64,000 bases of DNA from a virus (IMGVR_UViG_3300005546_000011:6988-70987), one strand, 5' to 3'. Positions 6,628 through 49,831 are shown, numbered from the stretch's first letter. Numbers and translations: made by a program. Notes: generated from the letters alone by a model not told the origin.

Positions 6628-6674
6628 GGTGTCTCTTCCTTCTCTTGCCGAGTTGAAAGAGAGGGCACTTGATA

Positions 6675-7223: not shown

Positions 7224-7245
7224 ATCAGGATGCTCCTACATCTAA

Positions 7246-10256: not shown

Positions 10257-10258
10257 AC

Positions 10259-10277
10259 TTGACGCGGCTCTTACACT
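10259..10277 (+). promoter_or_regulatory. N7-spaced promoter-like motif TTGACG-N7-TACACT
   Basis: Intergenic, immediately after the terL stop. Confidence 0.65.
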
Positions 10278-10316
10278 CTTCGCGCCACTTAACCACTAAC
10301 CCGGAGGGCTTTCACA

Positions 10317-10898
10317 ATGCACAAGGTGTTCTATGAATCCGACTTCCAGAATGCGCTCGCTCACAAGGAATGGCTCGACTCGCTGTTCAACGTGTTGAGA
10401 CTCGAAGAAGACACAGCCGAACCAGGTCCGGGCGGGGGCTTTGTTCAGGCAGTGCCGAAACCGCTCGAAGAACCCGAGCAGACCCGCACGCGAGTCGCGG
10501 TTGCACTTGGCCTCGCGCCAGTCAGGTTGCTCGGTGACGCGGCGACATCCCCGGACAGGCTGGCGTTGAGAATCCGTCAACGGTTGTATCCAAAGCTCGA
10601 TCGCGTTGAGGCGGAGCCAGCGGCCGAAGCAAGCGAACCGCCAGCGGCCGAAGAGACAGCCGCCGAAGAGACAGCCGCGCCGCCGAAGGGCGAGCTGCCA
10701 AAGAGTCTAGGCCCGAAAGTGCTTGAGATCCTCGGTGCTCTCGATCCTCCGGTTCACACGTTCCATCAGCTGCGCAAACTGATCGCGACAGGCACGGAAG
10801 AAAGGCCGTGGTATCAGGATATCAAGGGCATCGGACCGGAGACGGCAGCCACTCTGGAAGCGGCAGCCGTTGCCGCGCCACCCGACGAAGAGGAATAG
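10317..10898 (+). CDS. Hypothetical protein with C-terminal helix-hairpin-helix motif
   Basis: IKGIGPETAATL HhH signature; GGAGG SD. Confidence 0.6.
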   Translation: MHKVFYESDFQNALAHKEWLDSLFNVLRLEEDTAEPGPGGGFVQAVPKPLEEPEQTRTRVAVALGLAPVRLLGDAATSPDRLALRIRQRLYPKLDRVEAEPAAEASEPPAAEETAAEETAAPPKGELPKSLGPKVLEILGALDPPVHTFHQLRKLIATGTEERPWYQDIKGIGPETAATLEAAAVAAPPDEEE

Positions 10899-11394
10899 CC
10901 TGGCGATCAACCTTGCAAGACTCTTCGCCTACACACGCGCCGTCGAAGATCGAGCCCTTGGTTTGAAGAAGCAGCTCGAAGACGGCGTGGCGGAGGAGCG
11001 TACCCGTCACGAGGGCGAGATGAAGCGCTTGAAAGCGGCGTTCTCGGAAGAGCGCGAAACGCTGCGCGAGCAGGTCAGGCAGCTTACGTCGCAAGTTGAG
11101 GCCGAGCGGAAGGAACGGGGCTATCTGAACGATCGCCTCTGCCAGAAGCTCGGCCTTGCTCCCATTCACGAAGCGTCACCGGGCGAGGCGGCACTCAAGC
11201 AGGAGCGAGCAAACGATTCCAAGATAGTGAGGGGCGGCCCGCGAGCGACGGCGATTGCGGCAGGGTCCGAGGCGTTCAAGCGACAGAAGGAAGCCGTAGA
11301 CACCGAGGTCGCGCAGTTCGTCAAGGATCAAGGATCTCAGCAGCAGCACCCACCGGCAAACGATGGCTCTTCGGGCAATTCAGACAATCGATGA
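10870..11394 (+). CDS. Coiled-coil hypothetical protein
   Basis: Long heptad run; precedes the portal gene. Confidence 0.55.
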   Translation: MPRHPTKRNSLAINLARLFAYTRAVEDRALGLKKQLEDGVAEERTRHEGEMKRLKAAFSEERETLREQVRQLTSQVEAERKERGYLNDRLCQKLGLAPIHEASPGEAALKQERANDSKIVRGGPRATAIAAGSEAFKRQKEAVDTEVAQFVKDQGSQQQHPPANDGSSGNSDNR

Positions 11395-13975: not shown

Positions 13976-13979
13976 CGTT

Positions 13980-13998
13980 TTGACGGCGCGCTTACACT
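13980..13998 (+). promoter_or_regulatory. N7-spaced promoter-like motif TTGACG-N7-TACACT
   Basis: Intergenic after the portal stop. Confidence 0.65.
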
Positions 13999-14019
13999 AG
14001 CTGCGCCAGGGAGGGATCA

Positions 14020-14673
14020 ATGGGAACGTTAATCCTAACAAATGCAGACACCAATTATCGGCTAAGCGATCTCATTCGCGATGGGGCCGTGAAGCCGCCT
14101 GCGCCGGTTGGAGCGCTTGCTGGAGCCGGGGCGGGAAATGTCGAGAACGGTGACCACGGCTACGTGGTCACCTGGGTCACCGCCCAGGGCGAAAGCCTGC
14201 CGGGAGCGGCAGTGGTCGTGACGGTCGTGAACAAAGCCGCTGACGGTAAGGTCGCGTTGAGCGGCATCGCAATAGGCCCACCGGGCACGGCCTCGCGAAA
14301 GGTGTATCGCACGGTGGCAGCGGGCGCTGTGTACAAGCTGCTGACCACACTTGCCGATAACGCAACTACGGTTTACGTCGACAACACGGCGGACGCGAAT
14401 CTGGGAGCTGTTGCGCCTGCAAATGATCTGTCTGGCCTTCCCTACCCTTCGCCGTACTGGGACAACGTGGGAATAATCGCCGACGAAGCCAACACGGCTC
14501 CGGTCCTGCTGGGCGACGGCACGCTATCGGCGGCCAACTGGGACGAGTCAGTGGACCCGGGCGCTGGCAGCAATCGATTTATGAGCGGCGACGTGCCGCT
14601 GATGCCGTCTTCCATCTACGTCAGGAGCGCGATGGCGGGCGCGATAATTCACGTTTCGGGGGTGCAACGATGA
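14020..14673 (+). CDS. Putative virion structural protein (beta-sandwich)
   Basis: YVVTWVTAQGES...RKVYRT...TTVYVDN module common in phage tail/head proteins; GGAGG SD. Confidence 0.55.
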   Translation: MGTLILTNADTNYRLSDLIRDGAVKPPAPVGALAGAGAGNVENGDHGYVVTWVTAQGESLPGAAVVVTVVNKAADGKVALSGIAIGPPGTASRKVYRTVAAGAVYKLLTTLADNATTVYVDNTADANLGAVAPANDLSGLPYPSPYWDNVGIIADEANTAPVLLGDGTLSAANWDESVDPGAGSNRFMSGDVPLMPSSIYVRSAMAGAIIHVSGVQR

Positions 14674-17357: not shown

Positions 17358-17415
17358 CGTCCCCCTCCCTCCCCCAAGGCCCGCCCCTATAGGAACAGAC
17401 AAACCCCGGCTCCTC

Positions 17416-17430
17416 CCCGCAAATTGCGGG
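17416..17430. promoter_or_regulatory. Dispersed palindrome copy 3
   Basis: CCCGCAAATTGCGGG ending 9 nt upstream of the TTGACG at 17440. Confidence 0.6.
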
Positions 17431-17439
17431 AAGCGGAAC

Positions 17440-17458
17440 TTGACGCCGGGTCTAAACT
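17440..17458 (+). promoter_or_regulatory. N7-spaced promoter-like motif TTGACG-N7-TAAACT
   Basis: Upstream of the scaffold/capsid operon; followed by CTTCGCGC like other copies. Confidence 0.65.
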
Positions 17459-17529
17459 CTTCGCGCTCGCTGCGAACTTACGGCCGGACGCAGACCCCCG
17501 GCTAACACTAACCACGCTGAGAGGCCCTT

Positions 17530-18882
17530 ATGAGCTGGAATCCGGACGCGATCGATCAGGCTGTTGACCAGAAGATGGGCGGAGGCGCCGCCGCTGCCGA
17601 CCCTCCTAACCCAGCGGCCCCGGCCCCCGTGACTGCGCAGCCTGTCGCGCCGGTTCCTGCGCCCGCACCCGCTGTTCAATCCGACCCCGCTCAGCCTGCA
17701 CCGGCTCCCGTTGTTGACGCGCCCGCTCCGGCTCCTGCGGCTCCCGAAGCTCAGCCCGACGCGCCGGCACCCCAGCCCGCTCCCGATGCGCCCGCCGAAG
17801 AGGTAGTCGATGAGGCTGCCTACCGCACGGCCATCGAAAGAGTGGGGGGCTTGGAAGAGCTGGATTGGCTCGAGAAGGTAGGCAAGCCGCTAATCGCGCC
17901 GGTGATCGACGCTGACGGCTTCATGAACGCGGTGGAAGAGAATCGCGGGACGGACGGACTGTCGCGTCTCGCGTGGGGCTTCTTCGACCGCCACATCACG
18001 GATTACGTTGACGAGCTGCTGAGCCCGCGATTCGATCCCAATCAGATTGAGGACCCCACGACGCGGGGGCGTGTCGCTCGAATGCGTGAGGCCGCGCTCG
18101 GCGGCGCTCCAAGACCCGCTGCCCCTGCCGCTGCGCCCGTGACCCCGCCGCCCTCGCGAGCGGACTTGGCGGCAGCGAGCGGCTTGCCAGCGCTCAATCC
18201 CGACGATTACGACGAGCTGCCGAAGCCGATTCTCGACTTCATTGCGGCTGCGCAGGCCCGAGACGGCCAGATCAAAACCATCGAGGAGCGGCTGGCGGAA
18301 CTCGATCGCTACCGTGAACAGGAGCGCGAGCGCCTGCGCCTCGAAAGCCAGACGGCGGTCTGGCAACAAGCCGGGCAACGCGCCCATGCGTTGGCCACCG
18401 AAATCAAGGGCGAGATCGATAAGGAAATTACTGTCGTGTCCTTTTCGACCGCCGTAGATCCTGCCGCCGCCAAGGCTGAGAATGACGACATTACGGCCGA
18501 CATTGAAGCGCGGCTAAACGACTACACCGACACCGACCCGGCGTTCACGAGGCTCTACGATGAGGCTCGCGCCAAGTACATAGCCGGGGACAAGCTGGGC
18601 GCGCGCGAGCAGGTCCGAACGCTGAAGACGCTGGCTCGGACGTTCGTCAAGCAACGCATCGCCGCACGCGGGGGAAAGGTCAAGGCTGCAGTTGCAGCCG
18701 GGGCTCCTCCCGTAACTGCCAACCCTTCACAGCGTGTTGTGATCAGCGGACCAGGCTCCGGGGCTGCTTCGACGATTCCCGCTACGCCACCGCCCGGAAG
18801 CGGCGGTAAGGCGTGGGAGAATCTCGATCAACAGATCGATTCCAAGCTGTCGAAGCTCAACCCCGCGGCACCCGTAGGCTAA
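17530..18882 (+). CDS. Capsid scaffolding-like protein
   Basis: P/A-rich N-terminus, helical coiled coil, located directly before the capsid gene. Confidence 0.65.
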   Translation: MSWNPDAIDQAVDQKMGGGAAAADPPNPAAPAPVTAQPVAPVPAPAPAVQSDPAQPAPAPVVDAPAPAPAAPEAQPDAPAPQPAPDAPAEEVVDEAAYRTAIERVGGLEELDWLEKVGKPLIAPVIDADGFMNAVEENRGTDGLSRLAWGFFDRHITDYVDELLSPRFDPNQIEDPTTRGRVARMREAALGGAPRPAAPAAAPVTPPPSRADLAAASGLPALNPDDYDELPKPILDFIAAAQARDGQIKTIEERLAELDRYREQERERLRLESQTAVWQQAGQRAHALATEIKGEIDKEITVVSFSTAVDPAAAKAENDDITADIEARLNDYTDTDPAFTRLYDEARAKYIAGDKLGAREQVRTLKTLARTFVKQRIAARGGKVKAAVAAGAPPVTANPSQRVVISGPGSGAASTIPATPPPGSGGKAWENLDQQIDSKLSKLNPAAPVG

Positions 18883-18935
18883 GGCTTTTCAGGACCATCA
18901 GGCTGACACCTGACTTCTTTTAGGGGGAATAATCT

Positions 18936-20252
18936 ATGCCACAGTACCTCTACGGGTCCGCTGAGTCACAGGTCGTGGCGCGCGAAATCCTCGACGAGAA
19001 CATGTACAAGCAGTACGAAGAGGAAGCGATGTTCTTCAACATGTTCGACGACGGGAGCGATAAGTTCGTCGGCGATGTTGGCGCTCAGTGGGTAAACGTT
19101 GTTCAGGGGAATCCTGGCATGAAGGGCATGAGCACTTCTGACCGGGCTTTCCATCGCGGTTCGACTTCCAAGCGCGTTCGCTCGAAAGTCACCTTCGCTC
19201 AGTTCGCAATCACCCGCGCCTTCTCGGGACAGGTCCTCCATACGGATATGAAGAGCCTGATCAAGGGTTGGGCTCCGATGATCAAAGAGGACATGAGCAC
19301 CTTCATCAAGCTGCTCAACCTGATGTTCCACGGGGACGGGTCGGGCAAGCTTGCCACTGTCACCGCAGCGCCAGCCGTTACGGCGACGATCACCTTCGAC
19401 CAACCGGTCGGAGCGACGCAGCTTTTGTCTCGCGGGCAGTATCAGATCGTCGATCCGGCTGACGGCACGGCGCACAGCCTGACCATCGCCGCCGTTGCGG
19501 TCACCACACCTTATCTCGTAGGCAAAACCGGCGCGAACATCGGTCTGTTTGCCGACGACGAAGAGGACACGGTGGTCGATAACATCTCCGCCACGTCGAT
19601 CGTGGCCGGGGACATCGCCATCTGGAACGGGACGTACAATAACGTTCCCAAGGGCCTCTGGCACCACTTGGCGACGGGCTCGCGGACTTACCAGAACGTC
19701 TCAACGGCAACGTATCCGCAGTTCAACCCGCCGATCTACGACGCGGGCAACGGGCCGCTTTCGGTTATGTTGATGGACAAGCTCGAAGCCGGGCTTGTGT
19801 ATCGCGCGGGCAAAGAAGAAGTGCTCGAAGGGATGTTCTGGGTTATGGCCCCGACTCAGGTCAACGGGTATCGAAAGCTCGGCTACAACACCCCGGAGGT
19901 CGGGGTTGTGAAGCGGTTCGGCGCGGGCGATCGCGTGCTTGATCTGGGCTTTCCCGTCATCCGGCACAACGGGCGAGTGATCTATCAGGACGTCGATGCC
20001 GATCAGACGCGCGCGGCTCTTATCACAAAGAGCACCTTCCAGCGCTTTGCGGCGAAGGCTCCAAGCGTGGTCAACGACACCGGCGAGTTGCTCAATAAGG
20101 TGTACAACTCCTCGGGTCAGCGCCTGTGGCAGTACACGTTCGACATCAACACCCTGCTCGAGCTCGGCAACACCGAGATTTCGCGCAACGGTGGAATCAT
20201 CAACCTGATCTGGCAAGGTCTCCCGATCAAGGGCGACGTCCAGGGCTTCTAG
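18936..20252 (+). CDS. Major capsid protein
   Basis: 438 aa after scaffold; LNLMFHGDGSGKLATV-type segment seen in HK97-fold capsids; GGGGGA SD. Confidence 0.8.
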   Translation: MPQYLYGSAESQVVAREILDENMYKQYEEEAMFFNMFDDGSDKFVGDVGAQWVNVVQGNPGMKGMSTSDRAFHRGSTSKRVRSKVTFAQFAITRAFSGQVLHTDMKSLIKGWAPMIKEDMSTFIKLLNLMFHGDGSGKLATVTAAPAVTATITFDQPVGATQLLSRGQYQIVDPADGTAHSLTIAAVAVTTPYLVGKTGANIGLFADDEEDTVVDNISATSIVAGDIAIWNGTYNNVPKGLWHHLATGSRTYQNVSTATYPQFNPPIYDAGNGPLSVMLMDKLEAGLVYRAGKEEVLEGMFWVMAPTQVNGYRKLGYNTPEVGVVKRFGAGDRVLDLGFPVIRHNGRVIYQDVDADQTRAALITKSTFQRFAAKAPSVVNDTGELLNKVYNSSGQRLWQYTFDINTLLELGNTEISRNGGIINLIWQGLPIKGDVQGF

Positions 20253-36605: not shown

Positions 36606-38060
36606 ATGGGATACGGTCTGGCAAGCTTGGCTTCGCGGCTCATCCCGCGGCGTCCGCAAGAGGAAGATCAAAGCGCGGGCCTAACCCTTACGCCAAGGCC
36701 CATCCCGGTAGACGCTGAGGAGGCGCCCACCGCGAGCCGACTCATCCCGCGATCGGGTCTGGCGAAAGGTGTCGAGGAGCAGTTCCGGCTCGTGCCCCGA
36801 AGCGAGCTTGCGGCCGCGCCAGCTCCTGAGCCCCTACCCCTTGCCCCTCGCGCGCCGCGCGACATGGAGGAGTATCTCAGCAGTCCGACGTCGCGCTACA
36901 GCCAGCCGGTGCCGCCAACGGTTTCTTCGATTGACCCGTCCGGTCACGGAAGTGAAGCGGCCCCCTCGTTCGAGCCGCGTTACACGGACCCAGGTCGCGC
37001 GCCGACGCCTCCCCTGCGCGCCTACTCCCAATCCTACGGGCGATATCAGGACGAAAGCGCCCGGCTTCCAAGCGAGCGCGACTACATCGAAGCAAACCGT
37101 CCCCACGGATTCAAACAGAGGCTGATGCAGGACCTGAAGCTCGGCGGAAAGTTCCTTGTACAAAGCGGCCTGAACCCGGTCGTGGCAGCGGAGGGCCTTG
37201 CGATCGGCGCGCTGGACCGGGACGCCTACAACAGATATTCGTACCGCACGGACGTTGAGCCCCGCTCAATCCAGCGGCAACAGAGGTATCTGGGCGACGC
37301 CAGCCGCGAACTCGGGATGACGAATATTGTTGACGACAACCGGCGGGCCGACGAGCAGATGAGATTGAACGCGGACTGGCACCAGACGCAGGTTCAGGGT
37401 CACAACCAGGAATGGCAGGAACGGCTTCAGGAGAAGACGCTGAACGACTGGATGGCGAGAAATCCCGGCGTGCCGATACCCCGGCAGATTGCCGAGCAGG
37501 TCGGTCATTCGTATCTGGCCGGCTACACTCCGCCAGCGAAGAGATCGGGCGCGGGTGGCCGGACGCCTCACGTCCTTTTCAACGCGAAGACGGGAGAGGT
37601 CGGCGTTGTGACCTACGATGAGAACGACACTCCGACGCTTACGAAGCCGCAGGGTGGGCAGATGCAGCCGACGCCGGACACCGGCGCGGACACGACGGTC
37701 ACCACTCAAGACGAGTATGGTTACCCGGGCGGTGAAACCCCGGAGCAGTACGCCGAACGCACCCAGACGTACCTAACCCATATCGACAGTCTCGTCGCGC
37801 GCGGTGAGATGCTTCCGAAGGATGGCGAGGACCTCAAGAATCAGTGGAGGCGAGAGAACGCGCCGCGCAAAACCGGAGAGCGGAGGCTGACCAGCAAGAC
37901 TGGCGGCAGGCTGACACCGCGCTCGCAGGTGCAGAGCGGCGCGAGCGGCAAGACAAAGCTCAGCGCCGACCAGGTGAGGCAGTACGCTGACGCAAACGGA
38001 TGGACGCCCGAGCGGGCCGCTTCCTATCTTCGCTCGACAGGTAAGTACATCGTTCCCTAA
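36606..38060 (+). CDS. Ejection-protein-like (DNA transfer) protein
   Basis: P/R/Q-rich low-complexity 484 aa immediately before the giant SLT gene; TAATG coupling. Confidence 0.5.
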   Translation: MGYGLASLASRLIPRRPQEEDQSAGLTLTPRPIPVDAEEAPTASRLIPRSGLAKGVEEQFRLVPRSELAAAPAPEPLPLAPRAPRDMEEYLSSPTSRYSQPVPPTVSSIDPSGHGSEAAPSFEPRYTDPGRAPTPPLRAYSQSYGRYQDESARLPSERDYIEANRPHGFKQRLMQDLKLGGKFLVQSGLNPVVAAEGLAIGALDRDAYNRYSYRTDVEPRSIQRQQRYLGDASRELGMTNIVDDNRRADEQMRLNADWHQTQVQGHNQEWQERLQEKTLNDWMARNPGVPIPRQIAEQVGHSYLAGYTPPAKRSGAGGRTPHVLFNAKTGEVGVVTYDENDTPTLTKPQGGQMQPTPDTGADTTVTTQDEYGYPGGETPEQYAERTQTYLTHIDSLVARGEMLPKDGEDLKNQWRRENAPRKTGERRLTSKTGGRLTPRSQVQSGASGKTKLSADQVRQYADANGWTPERAASYLRSTGKYIVP

Positions 38061-41000
38061 TGGGCACCCCGCAAGAACAACTGCGTCCTCGGGTCGCGCC
38101 TGAGGACTTCTTCAAGAGCACCTCGCCCGACTATCCCTCGATGGCGCGGGAAGCAGCCACGCGCTACGGCGTGGACCCTAACATCTTCGAACGCCAGATG
38201 GCGCACGAGTCGATCAACTACGACCCGGACGTCGTGAGCGGACGTCGCAAGAGTCCCAAGGGCGCGGCCGGCATCGCGCAGTTCATGCCCGACACGGCCG
38301 CGCGCTACGGGCTGCGCGGAGAGGATCTCGCTGATCCGCCGAGAGCGCTCGACGCGGCAGCGCGGCATATGCGCGATCTGCTCGACGAAACCGGCAATGA
38401 TTATGAAGCGGCGCTTGCAGGTTATAACGCTGGGCTCGGCCGTGTTCGAGATGGGAGCTGGTCGCGGATACCTGAGACGCGCAACTACACGAGTAAGATT
38501 CTGGGAGCCGCGCGGCAAGGGCTGAAACCAAAGATCGACCCGGATTCGTTCTTTGCGAACGCGGGGACTCCCGCGCAGGTGACGGCGCCGCCCGCTTCGG
38601 CTCCGGCACAACCGTCGCGGCGCAGCAGATATTCGACGTGGGCACCCCCCGCCCAAGCCCCCGTTGCCGCCACGGCTGCTCCGACGCCCACCGCCCAGCC
38701 TTCCGCGCGAAGCAAGTACTCGACCTGGGCTCCACCTCCGCCGCAGTTCTCAGAGCTGCTCGCACCCAAGGATCGGACCTCGCTTCCGCCTGTCACGCTG
38801 ACCCCGCAGTCTGAAACCAATCGCGCGTATGCAAACGAACAGGCGCGCCGGTCGAAGATGTTGCTACCCAGGCGGTTGTACGAGCAAGCGGCCGACGTGG
38901 TGATGGGCACGCGCGACGACGGCAGCCGGATGGGTGTCGTCGAAGGGTTGAAACGCGGGGTCGAGCCGATCGCAGGAGCAGTCAGCGGAGTGATTGGCGA
39001 CATCGGGGCGCTGGGCGCGATACCGATCGAGGGTTTTGGAAAGTTTATAGCTGAGCAAAGGGCCAAGCGCGGGCTCCCGCCAGACTCGTCGGAGGATCTG
39101 GCTCACGCTGGAGACCTTTCTCGTGAGATGCAACACGCGAGCGACGTCGAGCGCGAGCGCAACCCCGGCATCGTTCCCGGACTCGTGCGAGGGGCCACGG
39201 ACATAGCGCTGACGGTTCCGGCGATCACGGCGGCAAAGGTTCCGGCTCTTGCGATGGGGGCTCTCAGTTCAGGCCGGGCACTCGCGCGCGGAGCCTCACC
39301 GACCGAAGCTTTAGGCGAGGGCCTGATTGCCGCCGGTCCACTCTTCGTCCTTCAGGGCTCTCCGCTGGGCGGCTTCGCGCGGCAGGCTGTAACGCGCGCG
39401 CTTGCTCCGGACGCGGCGGAAGGGTTGGCGTCGGAGGCTTCAGTCGCCACGCGGCTCACTCGACTGCAGAAGCTTCAGGCGCTGGCAAGCGATGCCTCCA
39501 CGACGGACGGCGAGCGTGCGGTTGCTTCGGCTCGTGCTCGCGTTGTCGCCGACAGCCTCAAGGAAAGCTCGCAGGTAGAGATCGACCGTGCTGTCGAGGC
39601 GCTGGGGCAACACCTTCGCGCGAACGTCGCGGGACTGACCGCGCAGGGGGCCGTCAACGCGGCGCAGTTCATCGGCACGTCGGCGGCGCTCGAGTTGGGA
39701 ATCAAGGGCCGGAAGATGACCGCACCCGAGATCTTCCAGCAGGGCTTGTTGCTGCTCGCCCTTGAAGGTGCGCCAGCGATCGGAGCGGCAGGCGAAGTTA
39801 AAGGGAAGCTCTCGGAGTTTCGACAGGCAGAGGCGGGACGGCGCGCGCTTGAATACGATCGTGCCGGCGAGAGCACGGCGCCGCCAGTTGGCCCAGCTCG
39901 TCAGTTGACGGAAGCTGGAGCGGGTGGCCCAATTTCGGCACCCGAGACTCCGGTTGGGCCATTGGCCCCGCAACCCGTTGAATCTGCGAGCGCGCGAGGT
40001 GGCCCAGATTTAGCTTCGGAATCTCGAATCGGGCCATCGTCAATCGTCCACACGCCGCTGATGGAAAGCGTCGATCCCAACCTGGTTAGAGCGGAGGTGC
40101 AGAATGAACTTGCTGGTAGGAGCCGTGTTGTTCCTGGCGCTGTGGAGCCTCCCGCTCGTCCCGCTGATGCTGTGGCACCGCCAAGCGCGGAGCGGCCAGT
40201 GGCCGGCACCCCGCAAATTGCGGGGAGGGCTGCGCCTTTGGGGTCACCTGAGCCACTTCCTGCGCAGCTTGAGGCGTTGCGCGCGGGTGACAGACGCGCG
40301 GTTGTGGTGCCTGCGGGCGAGGAGTTGCCGGAAACTCAGGGCTCGCTAACCGCGCCGGGGTCGGGGCTGGCGGTTACGAAGCTGCCTGACGGCTCTCGTG
40401 TTATCCACTATTCGGGCTCGACGACCGCGAACGATCCGCGCGTCGTCTCAAAACGGGAAGTGAAAGCGCTGGCCGCGGCTGGACGGCTGCACGAGTTGGA
40501 GGGACCGGCCGCAACAGTTTCGCAACAACAAGCCGAGCAGCCCGCTCAGCCCGTAGCGGAAGCAGCGGAGAAAGGGAAGGGGGCGTTACCGCGCGCGGCC
40601 CTCGACGACTTAGAGAGTGTCGGGTTTTACAGGAATCAGGGTTATACTGAGATTGCTGATGACACGCTCGCACGTCTAAGAGCGCAGTATGGGAACCGTC
40701 CTGAGTTTGATCGGGCCTTTCCCGCCAAGCCCCCCGAATCTCCCAAAGTAGAAGCAGCCAAGCCCACAGCGGCCGAACCCGAGCGCAAGTTCTCAAGCAC
40801 GCAGGTCAATCTCCCCGCGCCCGTCGCCAAGCGAGTGACCGGCCTCGCAGCGAAGATCCCAGACAGCGCCCTCGCCGCTGACGGCCGAGAAACCGAGCCT
40901 CACATCACGGTCAATTACGGCCTGCACACGGGCGACGCCGAGAAGGTTCGAAAGGTGCTCGCCGGCGAGGGGCCCATAACCGTGACGCTCGGCAGGACCT

Positions 41001-44000
41001 CGATCTTCCCGGCGAAGGAAGCGGCCGCCCAGCGCGGCGGTGATCAGTACGACGTCGTGAAGATCGACGTGGACTCGCCTGACCTTCACCGGCTCAACAA
41101 GAAGATCGCGGACGCGCTGCCGCACACCGACACGCATCCGGAGTACAAGCCCCACGTCACGCTCGCTTACGTGAAGCCGGGCGAGGGTGAGAAGTACGCC
41201 GGGGACGCGTCGCTTGAGGGCCAGACAGTAAGCCTCAATAGCGTTGCCTTCAGCGGCAAGGATGGCAGCGTTGTTGAGATTCCACTAGGAGGTAAAGCCA
41301 ATGCCAGCACGGAGCAGATTCACCCGGAAACAGGACCGGGCGGCGTCGCATATAGCGGAGGGCTACGAGGCGAAGGGGATGCCGAAGGACGAGGCCGAGC
41401 GGATCGGCTACGCCACGATGCAGAAACAAAAGCAGCGGTTGAGCCCGCGTCCGCCGGGCAGAATGCCGCCGCGAAAGCCGCGCCCGCGAATGTAGGGTCA
41501 CGGGATCTGGCACGCGGTACGCGCACCTTGATTGACTCTATTAAGGCGCGGCTAGCTTCGGGCGAGGGCGTCAAGGATAACCCGACGCTTACGAAACTCG
41601 CCGACGAGGCTTTCGGGGGCACGCGCGCGAAAGGGACCTACGGGCCGAAGGACTCAGCCGACGCGCTGGAGGTGGCCGTCAATCAGCACCTGGCCGGAAG
41701 CGCGGACCGCTTGATGGCGGGTAAGCCCAAGCAGAGTCTTCACGAGATCCGGAAGGTGATGAAGCTTCTTCCTCGGCAAGTCGACCGTACCACCGAGCAG
41801 ATCGAGCTTCAGCAATTCTCGACCCCGCCGACTGAGGCTTTTGTCGCCGCCAAGGCGCTTGCGCCCACGTCGGACGACCTTGTTGTCGAGCCCTCGGCGG
41901 GCACTGGTTCACTTGCCATGTGGCCGCGCGCAGTTGGCGCTCAGGTTCGTACAAACGAGATCGATCCGCGAAGGCGCGCGCTGCTTGAAGCGCAGGGCTA
42001 TTCAACGACTCACGTTGATGCGCAGTTTCTGGATGACCTGCTCCCGGCCGAGATCCAGCCCACCGCTATCCTGATGAATCCTCCGTTTTCGTCGACTGGG
42101 GGACGTGTAACGAAACACGATTCGAAGTACGGTGCCGAACACGTCGAGGACGCGCTGAAGCGGCTCGCTCCAAACGGGAGGCTTGTTGCTATTGTCTCGG
42201 AAGGCATGGCGATGGATCGCGAAAAGATGGGTGGGTGGTGGAGGCGCATTCTGGCGGACTACAACGTCCGAGCGAACATCTCCGTACCCGGCGAGGAGTA
42301 CGGGAAGTACGGGACGACCTATGGCAACCAGATCATTGTCATCGACAAGACCGGGCCGACTCCGGGTGAAAACCTGAGCGCGCGGCTCTCGAATGTGATA
42401 CAATCGGCCCCGAAGGATTTGGAAGGTGTACTCGATGCACTCAAACCCGTCATCGCCGACCGCCCCGCAATCAAGCCCGTCGCCGCACGTCCCGCCACGG
42501 TGGAAAGAGATTCGCGACATGGTGACCGACGCCCTGGACAACCAAAAGCTTCGACCAAAACTGACCGAGGAGATGTCGTACGCGGCACTGGGGAACGACC
42601 CGGACCAACTCCTGACGAAGCTCGACCAACTGGACCCGCAGAAGGGGCTCCGCCTGTTCCGCGAGGCGAATCCGGACCTGGACCTGTCGAAGCTGCGCAA
42701 TCTGAAGCCGAGCGAGCTATTCGCCCGGGTAACGCTGATGTTCGCGCCGTAGCGCCTCCACGTGAAGAAGGCGAAACCTTTGTCGCCTACCGTCCCGCCA
42801 AGTTCAAGGGCGGCCTCCCACATCCCGGCAACATAGTCGAGTCGGCTTCGATGGCGGCCGTTGATCCGCCTGAGATTACCTACAAGCCAAAGCTCGACCC
42901 TGACGTTCTGACCGAAGGCAGACTCTCCGATTTGCAGTATGAGGCGGTGGCCTATGCCGGGCAGCGCCACGAACAGAGGCTCCCGAATGGCAACCGGGCA
43001 GGTTTCTTTGTGGGCGACGGTACGGGCGTTGGCAAGGGTCGAATTCTGGCAGGCGTTGCGCTCGACAACTGGAATCAGGGGCGGCGTCGCATTCTGTGGC
43101 TTTCGGTGAACAACGACCTGGTCCCCTCGACGGATCGCGACCTGAAGGCGTTGGGCGGCGCGGTCCCATTGGCCGAGATTAGCGCCTTTTCGGCGTCGGG
43201 CGACATCGAGTTCAAAGACGGCCTGCTGTTTTCTTCGTACTCGACGCTTATCAGCCGGTCGAAAGGTGGCCGCGAAAGGCTCGACCAGATACGCGACTGG
43301 CTGGGTACGGACGGCGTGATTATGTTTGACGAGGCGCACCTGGCCAAGAACGCGACCGCGAGCGGTCAGAAAGAATCCAGCCAGCGAGGGCAGAAGGTCG
43401 TGGCGCTTCAGGAGGGAGACAAGACGAACGCCGACTATCGGATCGTTTACGCTTCGGCGACCGGGGCAACCGACCCTGAGAACATGGGCTACATGGTGCG
43501 GCTGGGGTTGTGGGGACCGGGCACGAGTTTCCCGGGTGGTTTTCAGGAGTTTCAGAATGCGATCGACACGGGCGGCGTTGGCGCAATGGAAATGGTCTCG
43601 CGCGACTTGAAGGCGATGGGGATGTACACCGCGCGGACGCTGTCTTACAAGGGCGTCGACTATCGCGAGGTTGAACATAAGCTGACGCCTTCGCAGCGCG
43701 AGCTCTACGACACCGCTGCGCGCGGCTGGCAGGTCGTGCTTCAGAACTTCGATAAGGCGATTCAGGTCACGAACGCCGACAGCCGCGCACGCACGCAGGC
43801 AATGAAGCGATTCTGGAATGACGAGCAGCGGTTCTTTCGTCAGTTCCTGACGGCGCTCAAGGTTCCTGCGGCGATCGAGCAGATTGAGGCCGCGCTGAAA
43901 GATGGCCAATCCGTGGTGCTTGGTCTGTACGGCACGGGTGAGGCTCGGACAAAGGACCAGGTAACGAACGCTATGGCGGCGGGGCGTGATTTGGACGATT

Positions 44001-47000
44001 TGGACTTCTCTCCAAAGCAGATCCTCACGCACCTGGTGGACAACGCCCTTCCGACCGCGCGCTACACGGAGGCGACCGATCCTCAGACAAAGAAGATCAT
44101 CAAGGTTCCGGTGTTGGATGCCGATGGCAACCCCGTCGAGAGCGCACAGGCAAAGCGAATGAAGGCTGAATTGCTTGACCAGCTCGAAAGCCTGTCGCTT
44201 CCAGATAACCCGCTCGATCAAATCGTCAACTATTTCGGTGTCGACAAGGTTGCCGAGATCACCGGGCGCAAGAAGCGGCTTGTTCGCGGAGCGGACGGAA
44301 AGACCCGCTATGTCAAACGCGTCGAGGGCGTCTCGATGGAGAAGGCTTCGCAGCACGAGATGCAGGCATTTCAGGACGGGCGGAAACGAATCGCGATCAT
44401 ATCCGCGTCGGCGTCAACAGGGATCAGCCTGCACGCCGACAATACGGGTAAGAACACTCAGCGCCGCGCGCACATTACTCTTGAGACCGGCTGGTCGGCC
44501 GATGTTCAAATGCAGACGTTTGGCCGCACGCATCGCACCAACCAAGCGAGCGCTCCGGAGTATGTGTTGCTGTCCACTGACGTTGGGGGCGAGCGCCGGT
44601 TTCTGTCGACGATTGCCAAGCGGCTTGCGTCGCTCGGCGCGCTGACGAAGGGCGAGCGCAAAGCTACGGGTGTGGGCGGAAGCGAAAAAGAGGGTCTTGA
44701 GAAGTACGATTTCCTGAACCAGTACGGGACGGCCGCCGTGCGCCGGATGATCCAGCAGCCGCGTAAGACCGTGGGTGACGAGACGGCGATGAAGCTCTTC
44801 GAGAAGATCGGCTTGGTCAAGGAGGATCGGAGCGGTACGAAGCAAATAGTAGAGCCGACTGTCGAGCGATTGCTGAACCGGGTGCTGGCACTTGAGCTTG
44901 ACCAGCAGAACGCGATGTTCGCGTGGTTTGGAGACGAGTTTGCGCGTGCCGTTCAAAACGCCAAGGACTCAGGCACCTTCGATGAAGGCGTGAGCGACGT
45001 AAAAGGCGAATCGATTCGCTTGATGAGCGACCCTGCGGTTGTCGGCACGGACAAGACCACCGGCGCCGAGACTCTGCACTATCAGCTTGAGGTAGACGAG
45101 AAAACGCACCCGGTCACATTTGCTGACGCGCAGCGGATCGCGAAGGAGCACGAGGGCGGAGCGTTCTATCGACAGGTCCGTTCCGGCAATTTGATCGTCG
45201 CGAGCAAGGCCGGGACTCGCACGGATGAAGCAAGCGGGCGAGTCACGCAGCGATGGCACGTAACGCGGCCGAGCGGGGCTATGCAGTCAATCATCGACCA
45301 GGACGAACTTATTTCGAAGTACCAACCCGTGCATGCCAATGACGCGAAGGTTGAGTGGGCGGAAGCCTACAAGACCGATCCCGGGATTAGGACGAGGTCG
45401 GTTCATATTGTCGGCGGAGCAATCCTTCCAGTTTGGGAACGGTTGCAATCGCGTGACAGCCACGGTCTGAAAGTAGTGCGGCTGATTACCGACGAGGGCC
45501 AGCGGATCGTCGGAGTGCAGATTCCGAGCAAGGCAGTTGGCGCCGTGCTTAAGGCGATCGGGGTAGAGCGCAGCTTCAAGGGGCCGGACGCAATCTTCGC
45601 AGGCGTGCTCGAAGACAACGAGACGGTGGAGCTTGTTGGCGGCATGCGGCTGGAACAGACCTACTTCCGGGGCGACACGGCGATCGAGTTGAAGGGCGCG
45701 GATGCCTACAAGGAAGCCGAGCTGAAGCAGATGGGGTTGATTCACGAGATCGTCAGCTATCGAGATCGGTTCTTTGTGCCGACCGACGAGACGAAGGGCG
45801 TCGAGGTGTTGCGCAAGCTGTTCGATCGCTACCCTGCGATGTCGGCGACTGGCGACGACGAGGCCGCTACAGGCTCGGCCCGGGGATCGGCTCGTGAGAA
45901 GCTTCGCGGAACAAAGGCGGAGGAGCGCAAGGCGGGTGAGGCTGGATTTGTCACCATCACCGAAGGGCGCGGCGGACAGCCTCCCGCTCGGGCCGGATAC
46001 GGCGGTTTCGAAGACCCCGAAATGGAGGCGCGCTGGAAAGCGGCGAAAGGAATACGTCCGGAGTACGCGTGGCAAAAGGCAAAGGAAGCGATGGCCCACT
46101 TGAAGCGGCTCGCTACGCGCGACCTCGAGCACCTGCCGCGAACTAGTCAGCACGCGGAACTGAACTTCGCCCTGCATCGGCTCGCCCAGGGCAAGGGCAT
46201 TGCCTCTGACGAGTCGGTTCGGATACTCCAAGGGTTGACGGCCGGGCTTAATAAAGAGAAGTACGATCTTTTCACCCGGCGAATCATCCTGTACGACTTG
46301 ATGGAAGAAGTCGAGCGGCAGGCAGCCGGGCGGGGCGAAGAGGCGGACATTAGACTTCCGTTCGGGTTCACTCCTGAAACCGTGATGAGTGAGTTTCGGC
46401 GGCTGAGCGCGGCGCTTAAGGATCATCCGGATGTCGAGCGTGCCGTCGAGCAGCGGCGCGCAGTCACAAAGGAAGTGACCAGCGAGTATTTGAAGGCTGC
46501 AAAGCAAGCGATCGGATTCGAGCCAAAGCTGACACGCGATTATTACTATAGGCATCAGGTACTGGCGCACGCGGAGGCGGCTCGCGTGAAGGGGACGGGC
46601 CCGAAGATTAAGGCACCTACGGGCCGGGGCTTCCTCAAGCAGCGCCACGGGTCGGAACTCGACATCAACACCGACTATCTGCAAGCGGAGCATTCGGTGC
46701 TCGCGCAAATGCTTTTCGATACACAGGTATTCAAGCTGATTCATCTGGTCGATGAAAACTACAACACCAGCGAAGCGCTGAAACGCGAAGCCAAGCGCGC
46801 AAACGACGAGGCCATCCAGACCATCATCGACGCTGAAGGCAGTCTGAACAAGCCGGTGCGCAAGGTGAAGCGTCAGAGTCTGTCGCAGTTTGTGAGGGAG
46901 CGCGGCGGCATACGCGAAGACTCCGACCTCGCCGGCGAGCGGCGCAGGTTGAGCCGAAAGGAAACGGGCACAACCGGGCTGACCTCGGCGGGTCGCGATC

Positions 47001-49831
47001 GCGGGCTGAGTCCGGATCGAATGCGCGAGGCGGCAGTCGAAGCGGGTTCCTTCATGGAGGATGCGCCCGAAGCGCAGAACGCGGGCAACTTCCTGTTTGC
47101 GGTCGAAGCCGACGCAACCGGCGGGCGCAAGATTTACAGCATGCAGGATGACGCCCCGGACCTAGAAGGGCCGATGTTTCTGACGGTCGGCGAGCAAATG
47201 AAACAGTTCAAGTCGAAGATCGGGCGCGGATTTGCCGAGCTGCGCGGCCTGGCAGCGGAAGGGGAACTGTGGACTGGCGATAACAACGAGTGGGAAAGCG
47301 CCGCGCGTCGGCTGACTGGGCATCGAAACTTCGATGAGGATCTGAGCGAACGCAACTCGCTGTTCAAGTACATTGCGGCGCTTGCTGCAAACGAAGAGGC
47401 GGTCGGAAACCTTCAAGCGCGAATCATCCTGAAGGCGATCAGCAATCGACGCGCGTTTATTAAGCAGACGCTCGGCAAGGATTTCAAGGAATGGCACGCG
47501 CTCGTTCCTGACAACGTCACCCTTTGGCAGCCGCGCGAGGGAAACATCTTCTTCCGCAGCTACACGCTTCCCGAAAAGCTGATCGACGCGGCGCTCGATC
47601 AGCGCTACGAGCAGATGGGATTTGAGGCCGACGATCTCAGGCGCGCGATGGTGATGGGCGGGCGGCGCCGGGAGTTTGCGATACCCGACGAAGTGGCGCT
47701 GACGCTCGATGACTTCATGAAGCCGCGAGACAGCAATCCGCTCGACCGAGGCGTCCGGGCGCTTGTGCGCGGGTGGAAGGTCTGGCAGTTGATCTCCCCG
47801 CATCGGCTGTTCAAGTACAACGCGCGCAACCTGTCGGGTGACGGTGAGGCCGCAGCCGTGGGCAATCCTCGCACGTTCCTGAAGGTAGGCAAATCGACGC
47901 ATGACCTGTATGAGTACCTGGGCCGCAAGAGCGCGCCGTCGGCGGAGCTTCAGGAATGGCTCGGGCGCGGCGGTCTCTACAATCTCTTCCAGGTCGCCGA
48001 AGATGTAGGGAGCGTGAACGGGCTCAAGGTGTTTCGCGGGCTCGAGGTGGACAAAGAAGGAAACCTTCAGAACCTGAATCTGTGGAAACGCTACTGGCAG
48101 GCTGCTCGCATCGCGACCGACTTTCGCGAGGCGATCCTGCGCTACGCCGCGTTCCTGGACTATCGCGAGCAGACCACGTCGAACCGAGCTGGTAAGCCAG
48201 GAAACTACGGCGCGTCGATTCCGGAGGAGGTGGACGCGATGCGCGACCCGTCCGACAAGGCTTACAAGCTGTCGAACGATCTGCTCGGCGCGTACGACGA
48301 GGTGACGGTGATGGGACAGTGGCTTCGCGAGCATTTGTTTCCGTTCTGGTCGTGGCAGGAGGTCAACGCCAAGCGCTACTATCGCCTGTTCAAAAACTCG
48401 ATCTATGAGGGAAGGAATGCAAGCGATGCGGGGCGCAGGTTCGCAGGCAAAGCGGCGCGACTGTCGCCACTGATAGCATTCCGCATCGGCAAGTTTCTTC
48501 TCAAGGCGACAGCGATGTGGGCAATGCTTTCCGCTTACAACAATCTCGTGTGGCCTGATGAAGAGAAGGACCTGGACGAAAAGACGCGCTCGCGGCTGCA
48601 CATCATTCTTGGCCGGCGCGCTGACGGGTCGGTGATCTACTTCGACCGGCTGGGCATGCTCGGCGATTTTCTATCGTGGTTTGGTCTTGATGAAGCGCCG
48701 CACTACGTTGGGGACTTTCTGAACAACAAGCGGACCGCCAAAGAGATCGCAGTCGAGATGGCGAAGGCACCGGCGAATAAGTTCTGGCAAGGTACGGGCC
48801 TGCCGAAGACCGCAGCCGAATTTGCGATGGGGCGCAACACCTATCCGGACGTCTTCCGCTCGCGCAATATTCGCGACCGTTGGCAATACTTGTTTCAGTC
48901 GTTCGCGCTGGGCGATGAGTACGCCGCGCTGACGAGCAAGCCGAGCCGTGGCGCAGGGCGCGCGTTCCGGGGACTGTTTGTGTATGAAGTAGATCCGGCC
49001 GAGTCGGCCTACAACCAGGTGATGAGCCTGAAGTCGGACTTCAATCGCAAACGCGGGAAGGCCGCCGACGTGTCGGTCGGGAACGATAAGTCGAACGCGG
49101 CCTACTATCTGAAGCTGGCGCTGCGCTACGGGGATGTCGAGGCGGCCAAGCAGCAGCTCGCCGAATACAAGGCGCTGGGGGGCACAGCCCAAGGATTGCA
49201 GGCATCGATCAAGAGTCTGGCGCCGCTTTCGGGTTTGAACGAAACGGACAAGGCGGAGTTTCTAAAGTCGCTGACGCCGGACGAGCGCGAGAAGCTGGCC
49301 AAGGCACAAGTCTTCTTCGAGACGGCGCTTGATCGGTCGGAAGAGGTGGGGCCGGCTGATTTGCTTGAGCGTCCTATCGCCAAAGAGATTCGCGAGCCCG
49401 TCGACAAGGAACTGCACAGGCTCGGGGTGGGTTTTCCGTTCCCGCAAAACGAGGTAACGATCGGCGGCGCCGCGCAGCAAATGCCAAAGGCGAAGTTCGA
49501 TGAGTTTCAGCAGCGCGTAGCGGAAACGTTCTACGCGCAGCTCGGCGACATGATCTCGAAGCCAATCTATCAGCGGATGAACGACGAGGATCGAAGGGTT
49601 GCGATCGAAGACTTCAAGCAGGCGTGGGTTGGCAACGAACGGCGCAGGCTGCACGGGCAACTGGTCACCGAGGGCACGGGCGCAAGTCCGCGTGAGCGGA
49701 TCGAGGCGCAGCGCGAGGGCATCGAGACACGCATGAAAGAGCGCGAGCTTGGGAACAAGGAAATGTTTCTTCAGCGGCGACAGATCGAGCGGCGGTTGAA
49801 GCCGCGATCGGAGATTCAAATCCCGCAATGA
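38060..49831 (+). CDS. Giant polyvalent virion protein: SLT transglycosylase, 2H phosphoesterase (Acb1-like), N6-adenine methyltransferase, strawberry-notch AAA/helicase, helical C-terminal region
   Basis: HES...GAAGIAQFMPDTA...AALAGYNAG (SLT); PHITV and PHVTL (2H); VVEPSAGTG and NPPF (MTase); GDGTGVGKGR, FDEAH, SATGA, STGISLHA and QTFGRTHRTNQ (SBNO-type SF2 helicase). Confidence 0.9.
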   Translation: MGTPQEQLRPRVAPEDFFKSTSPDYPSMAREAATRYGVDPNIFERQMAHESINYDPDVVSGRRKSPKGAAGIAQFMPDTAARYGLRGEDLADPPRALDAAARHMRDLLDETGNDYEAALAGYNAGLGRVRDGSWSRIPETRNYTSKILGAARQGLKPKIDPDSFFANAGTPAQVTAPPASAPAQPSRRSRYSTWAPPAQAPVAATAAPTPTAQPSARSKYSTWAPPPPQFSELLAPKDRTSLPPVTLTPQSETNRAYANEQARRSKMLLPRRLYEQAADVVMGTRDDGSRMGVVEGLKRGVEPIAGAVSGVIGDIGALGAIPIEGFGKFIAEQRAKRGLPPDSSEDLAHAGDLSREMQHASDVERERNPGIVPGLVRGATDIALTVPAITAAKVPALAMGALSSGRALARGASPTEALGEGLIAAGPLFVLQGSPLGGFARQAVTRALAPDAAEGLASEASVATRLTRLQKLQALASDASTTDGERAVASARARVVADSLKESSQVEIDRAVEALGQHLRANVAGLTAQGAVNAAQFIGTSAALELGIKGRKMTAPEIFQQGLLLLALEGAPAIGAAGEVKGKLSEFRQAEAGRRALEYDRAGESTAPPVGPARQLTEAGAGGPISAPETPVGPLAPQPVESASARGGPDLASESRIGPSSIVHTPLMESVDPNLVRAEVQNELAGRSRVVPGAVEPPARPADAVAPPSAERPVAGTPQIAGRAAPLGSPEPLPAQLEALRAGDRRAVVVPAGEELPETQGSLTAPGSGLAVTKLPDGSRVIHYSGSTTANDPRVVSKREVKALAAAGRLHELEGPAATVSQQQAEQPAQPVAEAAEKGKGALPRAALDDLESVGFYRNQGYTEIADDTLARLRAQYGNRPEFDRAFPAKPPESPKVEAAKPTAAEPERKFSSTQVNLPAPVAKRVTGLAAKIPDSALAADGRETEPHITVNYGLHTGDAEKVRKVLAGEGPITVTLGRTSIFPAKEAAAQRGGDQYDVVKIDVDSPDLHRLNKKIADALPHTDTHPEYKPHVTLAYVKPGEGEKYAGDASLEGQTVSLNSVAFSGKDGSVVEIPLGGKANASTEQIHPETGPGGVAYSGGLRGEGDAEGRGRADRLRHDAETKAAVEPASAGQNAAAKAAPANVGSRDLARGTRTLIDSIKARLASGEGVKDNPTLTKLADEAFGGTRAKGTYGPKDSADALEVAVNQHLAGSADRLMAGKPKQSLHEIRKVMKLLPRQVDRTTEQIELQQFSTPPTEAFVAAKALAPTSDDLVVEPSAGTGSLAMWPRAVGAQVRTNEIDPRRRALLEAQGYSTTHVDAQFLDDLLPAEIQPTAILMNPPFSSTGGRVTKHDSKYGAEHVEDALKRLAPNGRLVAIVSEGMAMDREKMGGWWRRILADYNVRANISVPGEEYGKYGTTYGNQIIVIDKTGPTPGENLSARLSNVIQSAPKDLEGVLDALKPVIADRPAIKPVAARPATVERDSRHGDRRPGQPKASTKTDRGDVVRGTGERPGPTPDEARPTGPAEGAPPVPRGESGPGPVEAAQSEAERAIRPGNADVRAVAPPREEGETFVAYRPAKFKGGLPHPGNIVESASMAAVDPPEITYKPKLDPDVLTEGRLSDLQYEAVAYAGQRHEQRLPNGNRAGFFVGDGTGVGKGRILAGVALDNWNQGRRRILWLSVNNDLVPSTDRDLKALGGAVPLAEISAFSASGDIEFKDGLLFSSYSTLISRSKGGRERLDQIRDWLGTDGVIMFDEAHLAKNATASGQKESSQRGQKVVALQEGDKTNADYRIVYASATGATDPENMGYMVRLGLWGPGTSFPGGFQEFQNAIDTGGVGAMEMVSRDLKAMGMYTARTLSYKGVDYREVEHKLTPSQRELYDTAARGWQVVLQNFDKAIQVTNADSRARTQAMKRFWNDEQRFFRQFLTALKVPAAIEQIEAALKDGQSVVLGLYGTGEARTKDQVTNAMAAGRDLDDLDFSPKQILTHLVDNALPTARYTEATDPQTKKIIKVPVLDADGNPVESAQAKRMKAELLDQLESLSLPDNPLDQIVNYFGVDKVAEITGRKKRLVRGADGKTRYVKRVEGVSMEKASQHEMQAFQDGRKRIAIISASASTGISLHADNTGKNTQRRAHITLETGWSADVQMQTFGRTHRTNQASAPEYVLLSTDVGGERRFLSTIAKRLASLGALTKGERKATGVGGSEKEGLEKYDFLNQYGTAAVRRMIQQPRKTVGDETAMKLFEKIGLVKEDRSGTKQIVEPTVERLLNRVLALELDQQNAMFAWFGDEFARAVQNAKDSGTFDEGVSDVKGESIRLMSDPAVVGTDKTTGAETLHYQLEVDEKTHPVTFADAQRIAKEHEGGAFYRQVRSGNLIVASKAGTRTDEASGRVTQRWHVTRPSGAMQSIIDQDELISKYQPVHANDAKVEWAEAYKTDPGIRTRSVHIVGGAILPVWERLQSRDSHGLKVVRLITDEGQRIVGVQIPSKAVGAVLKAIGVERSFKGPDAIFAGVLEDNETVELVGGMRLEQTYFRGDTAIELKGADAYKEAELKQMGLIHEIVSYRDRFFVPTDETKGVEVLRKLFDRYPAMSATGDDEAATGSARGSAREKLRGTKAEERKAGEAGFVTITEGRGGQPPARAGYGGFEDPEMEARWKAAKGIRPEYAWQKAKEAMAHLKRLATRDLEHLPRTSQHAELNFALHRLAQGKGIASDESVRILQGLTAGLNKEKYDLFTRRIILYDLMEEVERQAAGRGEEADIRLPFGFTPETVMSEFRRLSAALKDHPDVERAVEQRRAVTKEVTSEYLKAAKQAIGFEPKLTRDYYYRHQVLAHAEAARVKGTGPKIKAPTGRGFLKQRHGSELDINTDYLQAEHSVLAQMLFDTQVFKLIHLVDENYNTSEALKREAKRANDEAIQTIIDAEGSLNKPVRKVKRQSLSQFVRERGGIREDSDLAGERRRLSRKETGTTGLTSAGRDRGLSPDRMREAAVEAGSFMEDAPEAQNAGNFLFAVEADATGGRKIYSMQDDAPDLEGPMFLTVGEQMKQFKSKIGRGFAELRGLAAEGELWTGDNNEWESAARRLTGHRNFDEDLSERNSLFKYIAALAANEEAVGNLQARIILKAISNRRAFIKQTLGKDFKEWHALVPDNVTLWQPREGNIFFRSYTLPEKLIDAALDQRYEQMGFEADDLRRAMVMGGRRREFAIPDEVALTLDDFMKPRDSNPLDRGVRALVRGWKVWQLISPHRLFKYNARNLSGDGEAAAVGNPRTFLKVGKSTHDLYEYLGRKSAPSAELQEWLGRGGLYNLFQVAEDVGSVNGLKVFRGLEVDKEGNLQNLNLWKRYWQAARIATDFREAILRYAAFLDYREQTTSNRAGKPGNYGASIPEEVDAMRDPSDKAYKLSNDLLGAYDEVTVMGQWLREHLFPFWSWQEVNAKRYYRLFKNSIYEGRNASDAGRRFAGKAARLSPLIAFRIGKFLLKATAMWAMLSAYNNLVWPDEEKDLDEKTRSRLHIILGRRADGSVIYFDRLGMLGDFLSWFGLDEAPHYVGDFLNNKRTAKEIAVEMAKAPANKFWQGTGLPKTAAEFAMGRNTYPDVFRSRNIRDRWQYLFQSFALGDEYAALTSKPSRGAGRAFRGLFVYEVDPAESAYNQVMSLKSDFNRKRGKAADVSVGNDKSNAAYYLKLALRYGDVEAAKQQLAEYKALGGTAQGLQASIKSLAPLSGLNETDKAEFLKSLTPDEREKLAKAQVFFETALDRSEEVGPADLLERPIAKEIREPVDKELHRLGVGFPFPQNEVTIGGAAQQMPKAKFDEFQQRVAETFYAQLGDMISKPIYQRMNDEDRRVAIEDFKQAWVGNERRRLHGQLVTEGTGASPRERIEAQREGIETRMKERELGNKEMFLQRRQIERRLKPRSEIQIPQ
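40104..40349 (+). CDS. Candidate nested (+1 frame) membrane protein inside the giant gene
   Basis: GGAGGT SD 5 nt before ATG; MNLLVGAVLFLALWSLPLVPLMLW TM helix. Confidence 0.4.
   Translation: MNLLVGAVLFLALWSLPLVPLMLWHRQARSGQWPAPRKLRGGLRLWGHLSHFLRSLRRCARVTDARLWCLRARSCRKLRAR
40209..40225. promoter_or_regulatory. Dispersed palindrome copy 6 (CCCCGCAAATTGCGGGG)
   Basis: Inside the giant gene (encodes PQIAG). Confidence 0.55.
41301..41495 (+). CDS. Nested (+1 frame) small protein resembling the KQKRQAEHIEEGYEKRG..EAERRAWAT family
   Basis: AGGAGG SD at 41287-41292; RKQDRAASHIAEGYEAKGMPKDEAERIGYATMQK. Confidence 0.65.
   Translation: MPARSRFTRKQDRAASHIAEGYEAKGMPKDEAERIGYATMQKQKQRLSPRPPGRMPPRKPRPRM
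42435..42752 (+). CDS. Nested (+1 frame) helical hypothetical protein
   Basis: GGAAGG SD 8 nt before ATG; amphipathic L/D/K-rich translation where the giant frame is G/P/R-rich linker. Confidence 0.55.
   Translation: MHSNPSSPTAPQSSPSPHVPPRWKEIRDMVTDALDNQKLRPKLTEEMSYAALGNDPDQLLTKLDQLDPQKGLRLFREANPDLDLSKLRNLKPSELFARVTLMFAP

Follow-up and report, generated by a model that had tools for sequence, protein, structure and literature searches.

A member of a widespread small-protein family encoded in the +1 frame of a giant phage gene and probably captured into an interdomain linker

The locus described here raises the question of whether a single stretch of viral DNA encodes two proteins, one of them wholly inside the gene of the other. 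The DNA analyzed is a stretch of 64,000 nucleotides (nt) from a virus (IMGVR_UViG_3300005546_000011, positions 6988 to 70987; in the following, the window), which is part of a metagenome-derived record of 70,987 bases rated complete. According to the list of open reading frames (ORFs) and their translation, the plus strand of the window carries a giant gene (38060–49831) for a protein of 3,923 amino acids (aa). Within it, on the same strand, lies an ORF at 41301–41495 (ATG at 41301, TAG at 41493–41495) with a predicted product of 64 aa (7.4 kDa) and an isoelectric point (pI) of 11.4. Since a codon of the giant frame begins at 41300, this nested ORF is in the +1 frame. An earlier reading of the window, made by a model from the sequence alone (the sequence-only reading), had placed an overprinted gene here directly past the 2H phosphoesterase domain of the giant protein; its coordinates and frame were confirmed, and the 2H domain was found to end at 41293. 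Both frames are open over the nested ORF, whose product belongs to a small-protein family and is intact; the start site is strong, and the relatives of the giant gene lack the ORF. As in an overprinted pair, the outer gene is homologous to its relatives on both sides in one frame, and the inner one has its own start and ribosome binding site. The stretch thus probably encodes two proteins, and translation of the nested gene as a separate protein is probable.

For the +1 product, homologues were searched using phmmer against 1.84 billion representative proteins with a threshold of E ≤ 1e-3. The search, which had been proposed as a check on the sequence-only reading, retrieved 154 matches with a best E-value of 1.1e-10, nearly all of them between 45 and 200 aa in length. 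The aligned range of the nested product covers residues 4–46, and the consensus of the matches is MPRGDKSKYTDKQ.RKA.HIEEGYE.RGVPE.EAERRAWATVNK. The family motif has a Met-Pro at its start and runs to A(W/Y)ATVNK. The nested product aligns from its first residue, and its Met-Pro start matches the N-termini of the family within two residues. A hidden Markov model (HMM) of the family, built without the nested product, gave the latter 80.7 bits, compared to 25 to 97 bits (median 89) for the members. All 13 columns with a conservation of at least 90% are retained (M1, T8, K10, R13, A15, H17, I18, Y22, G26, E31, A32, A38 and T39). No match of the 64-aa product could be found in Pfam, NCBIfam, PHROGs or a word-index protein search, and the homology emerged only with the exhaustive phmmer search. 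Similarity of this extent is far beyond chance for a 64-codon ORF in an alternative frame, and judged by its alignment the +1 product is a genuine full-length member of the family. This is consistent with the sequence-only reading, which had matched it to a widespread small family of bacteria and phages often labelled 'plasmid stabilization protein', the name that is also used in RefSeq.

The nested protein was predicted by AlphaFold2 (alignment of 149 sequences) to form two helices, residues 9–24 and 29–46, with a predicted local distance difference test (pLDDT) score of about 93, followed by a disordered tail with a pLDDT of 60–70. The conserved core (residues 4–46; 41310–41438, plus strand) comprises the predicted helical hairpin, and its codon-position content of guanine and cytosine (GC) in the small frame is typical of the phage. 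The remaining part (41439–41492, plus strand) encodes the Arg/Pro-rich basic tail of low pLDDT, over which the codon-position GC is ambiguous between the two frames. Tails in the family are variable and basic, and that of the nested protein probably derives from older Ala-rich linker DNA read in the +1 frame.

The second line of evidence is the start site. A perfect AGGAGG, also noted in the sequence-only reading, was found at 41287–41292, 8 nt from the ATG; the Shine-Dalgarno (SD) sequence AGGAGGT as a whole spans 41287–41293 on the plus strand and reads CTA-GGA-GGT (Leu-Gly-Gly) in the giant frame. Its sequence and spacing equal those of the best SD sequences of the phage's own genes, e.g., the genes at 8106, 33616 and 58092. 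A TAG of the small frame at 41286–41288 overlaps the SD sequence, so that the small frame is open for only four codons before the ATG. AGGAGG is not enriched in the window (34 found, 34 expected), and the chance of its occurrence 5–10 nt from a given ATG was estimated from the plus-strand count at approximately 0.0025.

The giant codons under the SD region (ATT CCA CTA GGA GGT AAA) are without exception minority codons (6 of 6) with usages of 0.25, 0.13, 0.04, 0.17, 0.13 and 0.21, the product of which is approximately 6e-6; CTA accounts for 3.9% of the Leu codons. Two of the residues encoded there (Leu and the second Gly) belong to the conserved positions of the 2H domain in the relatives. Either the codon choice was bent at conserved residues, or foreign DNA replaced these codons while keeping the residues; on the codon statistics, the site looks maintained either way. 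The RNA structure around the nested start is not unusual (z = −0.44) and no Rfam family was found there. No promoter of its own could be identified for the nested gene, and terminator-like sites occur only at chance level. Its expression would therefore come from the mRNA of the giant gene.

Pfam matches of the giant protein were found to SLT (4.7e-17), 2_5_RNA_ligase2 (1.3e-08), AAA_34 (1.2e-107) and Helicase_C_4 (2e-84). The SLT lytic transglycosylase domain comprises residues 28–131. The 2H phosphoesterase domain (40883–41293, plus strand; Pfam stretch at residues 942–1042) has its HxT motifs at 40898 and 41150 and ends with the last conserved strand IPLGG (41279–41293), where (I/V)xLxG is kept in the alignment with four relatives. 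Motifs of an N6-adenine methyltransferase follow (QQFSTPP at 41810, NPPF at 42077), and the C-terminal module is a strawberry-notch-type helicase (AAA_34 and Helicase_C_4). A total of 188 homologous giant proteins was found, the nearest being P0003 with 57% identity. By its domain content, the product of 38060–49831 is a typical large polyvalent protein of the class described by Iyer et al. (2017; PMC5512222), with the conflict-related SLT, 2H, methyltransferase and helicase domains on one chain. In the giant frame, the linker that connects the 2H part with the methyltransferase part (41294–41515, plus strand) is rich in A, G, E and R and has no stop across the nested gene. Over the nested ORF, its composition (A15, G11, E6 and R5 of 66 residues) agrees with the G/R/A-rich filler noted in the sequence-only reading.

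Comparison with the relatives bears on how the nested gene came into this linker. In four of them (39–58% identity), the 2H and methyltransferase parts are fused in one frame, with homologous flanks (IPLxG on the left, GTRxLIDxIK on the right in the protein alignment) on either side of a shorter linker that lacks the ORF. Compared to P0003, the linker of the window has about 36 additional residues, which fall exactly on the conserved core of the nested ORF. No match to the family profile was obtained in the six frames of the giant-gene loci of five relatives (L002–L006). The possibility raised with the sequence-only reading that the frame is broken in close relatives was not borne out, as the ORF is absent there rather than broken. 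It was also considered whether polyvalent proteins normally contain the family domain as an in-frame module, which indels would have shifted here; this was rejected since no in-frame copy was found in 120 related giant proteins.

Since the four relatives have a fused 2H-methyltransferase without the ORF, placement of the small gene into an existing linker is likelier than its absorption by fusion of flanking genes. The most economical reading of the alignments would be the capture of approximately 110–140 nt into this linker, rather than an ancient overlap. The idea that a free-standing gene was absorbed as a linker thus stands as far as the presence of a family member in the linker is concerned, which is supported by homology and start site; its fusion origin is the less likely one, the four relatives being already fused. 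That the giant frame stayed open after capture needs no special explanation, because among 118 family genes, 19% have no stop over 65 codons in the frame equivalent to it. A second nested case was not detected among 120 domain matches in 116 family loci, of which 60 have some open span over the domain in another frame; the long spans are downstream genes with chance upstream extensions or have no Pfam family.

According to the mechanism proposed, a segment of approximately 110–140 nt with a complete phage-type family gene, encoding a helical hairpin and a basic tail, would have entered, by capture, the disordered linker that joins the 2H part of a giant virion-type polyvalent gene to its methyltransferase part, in such a way that the giant frame was kept open. 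Ribosomes in the giant frame would pass the nested gene and produce the A/G/E/R-rich linker, and the internal AGGAGGT-N7-ATG would start ribosomes in the +1 frame, resulting in the basic 64-aa protein. Taken as a whole, with capture, translation and function deduced from the DNA, we regard this reading as fairly likely.

Codon-position GC is in line with it. In the core (41310–41438), the values for codon positions 1/2/3 are 0.605/0.465/0.86 in the small frame and 0.84/0.61/0.47 in the giant frame, compared to approximately 0.67/0.47/0.72 for phage genes, a skew that is supportive only, as it is also seen in other low-complexity linkers of the same giant gene. In the tail (41439–41492), codon-position GC cannot separate the two frames. 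Besides this limit of the skew, several further points weigh against capture and use of both frames. The arrangement was found in one genome only and is not kept in the giant genes of the five relatives, and a very recent capture would appear intact even without selection. No flanking direct repeats or other insertion scar could be detected at the nested gene, and the DNA of P0003 is too diverged to place the insertion boundaries. No close relative was found with blastn among phages and plasmids (only short matches to methyltransferase motifs) or in searches of viral contigs and genome contigs. On the side of function, no relatives of the nested product were found in Pfam, NCBIfam or PDB, and a Foldseek search with its model gave no significant match; a two-helix hairpin is too generic for such a comparison.

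Some of these points would equally fit a silent relic, in which the small gene was captured recently and serves as extra linker only, its +1 ORF being undecayed for lack of time and giving no useful translation. The restriction to one genome agrees with this, as does the fact that linkers accept almost any sequence and that about a fifth of the family genes are stop-free in the relative frame. Against a relic speak a perfect SD sequence at ideal spacing, which a run of six minority codons spells across conserved residues of the 2H domain, and the preservation of the start codon, the frame and all 13 near-invariant residues. Furthermore, on an mRNA unwound by translation, initiation at such a site would be expected. 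We therefore regard the relic as unlikely, though it deserves to be kept in mind.

An ancestral arrangement would place the small gene originally between a gene ending in the 2H domain and one for methyltransferase and helicase. The three would then have been fused when the upstream stop was lost, and the relatives would later have lost the small gene. In many cases, family genes directly adjoin the next gene or overlap with it, e.g., in the 100-nt overlap with a tail-fibre gene in L021 and L023, and polyvalent genes grow by fusion (PMC5512222). Against this, the 2H domain, linker and methyltransferase are read in a single frame in the four relatives at 39–58% identity, whose flanks are homologous and which show no sign of the ORF. 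The ORF would have to have been lost cleanly and independently several times, which is less parsimonious and makes this origin very unlikely.

The +1 frame could also be reached by frameshifting, if the internal SD sequence, one base before AAA-G, promoted a +1 slip, the product of which would be a truncated SLT-2H protein with the family domain at its end instead of a separate 64-aa protein. The sequence AGGAGG-T-AAA-G does set an SD sequence near a codon whose tRNA could re-pair in the +1 frame, and it resembles the layout of prfB. However, neither a slow codon nor a stop codon follows the AAA, the 8-nt spacing is ideal for initiation, and the nested product has its own Met-Pro start in agreement with the family N-terminus, which would be unneeded in a fusion. 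A frameshift product is thus highly improbable.

Hardly credible, finally, is an artefact, either assembly or sequencing errors that joined the giant frame over a truly free-standing gene or a chance open frame, for although the record is metagenome-derived and the GC-rich giant gene contains 33 alternative-frame ORFs of at least 60 aa, chance is ruled out by homology at E 1e-10 and 80.7 bits, and errors would have to compensate each other several times since the flanks are in the same frame and homologous to single-chain relatives.

For the family, no Pfam or NCBIfam model was found in scans of 22 members, nor any other curated family. The RefSeq name 'plasmid stabilization protein' is carried by plasmid-borne homologues in 103 plasmid records, mostly of Rhizobium. 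A literature search for the motifs of the family, or for the name in connection with stress, returned nothing, and no experimental basis for the name was found. A ParE/RelE-type toxin was rejected as identity, since neither the nested product nor the 22 members matched a ParE family in Pfam or NCBIfam; the label 'ParE' on one member in one JGI record is likewise unsupported. As no ParE-type relationship was found, the name is uninformative. The ChaB model PF06150 matched 1 of the 22 members weakly (E 0.013), below the cut-off.

On a Pseudochrobactrum plasmid (L127) and an Ensifer plasmid (L128), homologues were found amid genes for cold-shock, CsbD, ferritin-like, PRC-barrel and general-stress proteins. 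The gene context of the plasmid homologues hints at a role in stress response rather than in plasmid maintenance. Members of the bacterial type typically read RRAWATVNK, and some of them bear a C-terminal Rho_N domain. The nested product carries the phage-type variant IGYAT together with its Arg/Pro tail. Based on the basic tail and on the Rho_N fusions in some members, it may possibly be a small nucleic-acid-associated protein, a guess that we consider rather doubtful.

A survey of the family in phages covered 36 viral contigs as well as several long phage contigs, in which it occurs as a mobile, free-standing small gene whose position varies between genomes. It was found between a lysozyme-domain gene and tail genes (L043–L045), between terminase and portal (L126), immediately upstream of a terminase-like gene (L027) and between tail-fibre genes (L021). 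The 70,987-base record of the window phage contains one copy of the family only. L126, a phage contig of 57 kb, is distantly syntenic with the window phage: terminase-, portal- and capsid-sized ORFs at 8106–20252 of the window share 23–29% identity with it in the same gene order. Of the free-standing homologues, the one closest to the nested gene (61% identity) is found on the same contig. In L021 and L023 (4683–6174), a tail-fibre-like ORF enters the start of a free-standing family gene by about 100 nt in another frame, a partial version of the overlap in the window. The family domain was also found at the N-terminus of phage proteins of 570–1,340 aa (L031, 5986–7935; L034; L036, 6001–8460; L040; L041; L042). 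In these proteins, a long middle part of low complexity is followed by a C-terminal region that is conserved and contains a CPHC motif, and no informative Pfam or PHROG family was assigned to them.

A second nested ORF was identified further downstream in the giant gene, in the linker between methyltransferase and helicase (42435–42752, plus strand, +1 frame; ATG at 42435, stop at 42750–42752; 105 aa). The GC content at codon positions 1/2/3 of the giant frame in this region (42395–42850) is 0.9/0.74/0.30 and thus more extreme than in the 41301 region. Homologous open stretches in the +1 frame were found at the same place in three relatives: L002 at 6773–7084 (E 1e-9), L003 at 7094–7438 (1e-5) and L006 at 6409–6771 (4e-4). 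As a control showed that DNA conservation by itself brings about alternative-frame similarity within the conserved helicase domain, only the excess over the giant frame counts for this ORF. Among the relatives, its +1 translations reached 47.8 and 34.7 bits, compared to at most 26.6 bits for the giant-frame translations of the same DNA. AlphaFold2, with an alignment of four sequences, predicted a six-helix fold (pLDDT 82.7; predicted template modelling score 0.68), and no relative of the product was found in Pfam, Atlas or PDB. This suggests that the linkers of the giant gene host more than one passenger. Several stretches rich in Ala, Pro and Gly with a higher GC content at the first than at the third position of the giant frame were also seen in the N-terminal third of the giant (38288–40660). 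Long open +1 and +2 frames occur there, e.g., 40104–40349 with a junk-like translation, and none of them matched relatives in an alternative frame.

Small genes nested out of frame on the same strand, with their own ribosome binding site, are known from phages, namely Rz1 within Rz of lambda and B within A and E within D of phiX174, and these pairs are conserved in their lineages. Rz1 and the phiX174 genes B and E are not known to have free-standing relatives. The gene at 41301 shares with them the position wholly within a larger gene of the same strand, the shifted frame and a ribosome binding site of its own, here a predicted one. It differs in belonging to a widespread independent family, in its position in a disordered linker and in its occurrence in one genome only. 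Another comparable case is comS inside srfAB of Bacillus subtilis, which encodes a lineage-specific peptide out of frame within enzyme-coding sequence. Both are short out-of-frame genes in a very large multidomain gene, whereas the nested gene described here is a putatively captured family member in a linker.

Morons, the independently expressed genes inserted between phage genes, resemble the family in other respects. Its members are small cargo genes that vary in position from phage to phage and have their own expression signal. Whereas morons lie between genes, the gene at 41301 is contained in another gene, whose frame is read from the same DNA, and neither promoter nor terminator of its own was found. 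The description of polyvalent proteins of phages and conjugative elements (PMC5512222) makes no mention of overlapping or nested genes, frameshifts, linkers or alternative frames. A full-text literature search for overlapping genes in phage polyvalent proteins gave nothing relevant.

We tentatively propose, as a generalization that falls somewhat short of probable, that the disordered linkers of giant polyvalent genes may be landing sites where phages and conjugative elements acquire or evolve further genes in a second frame, which would neither lengthen the genome nor affect the structure of operons. The giant gene described here would then carry two passengers, a recent one at 41301 and an older one at 42435, of a class that gene callers miss. 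Long overlapping genes on the same strand are rare in bacteria and phages and hard to prove. In the present case, the inner ORF is recognizable by its free-standing homologues, which removes the usual doubt over coding, and the birth of an overlap by capture, instead of by de novo overprinting, appears to have been caught. Since nested ORFs are skipped by gene callers, cargo genes of this kind are invisible in the annotation of phages and plasmids. The finding suggests that the linkers of giant multidomain genes tolerate such events.

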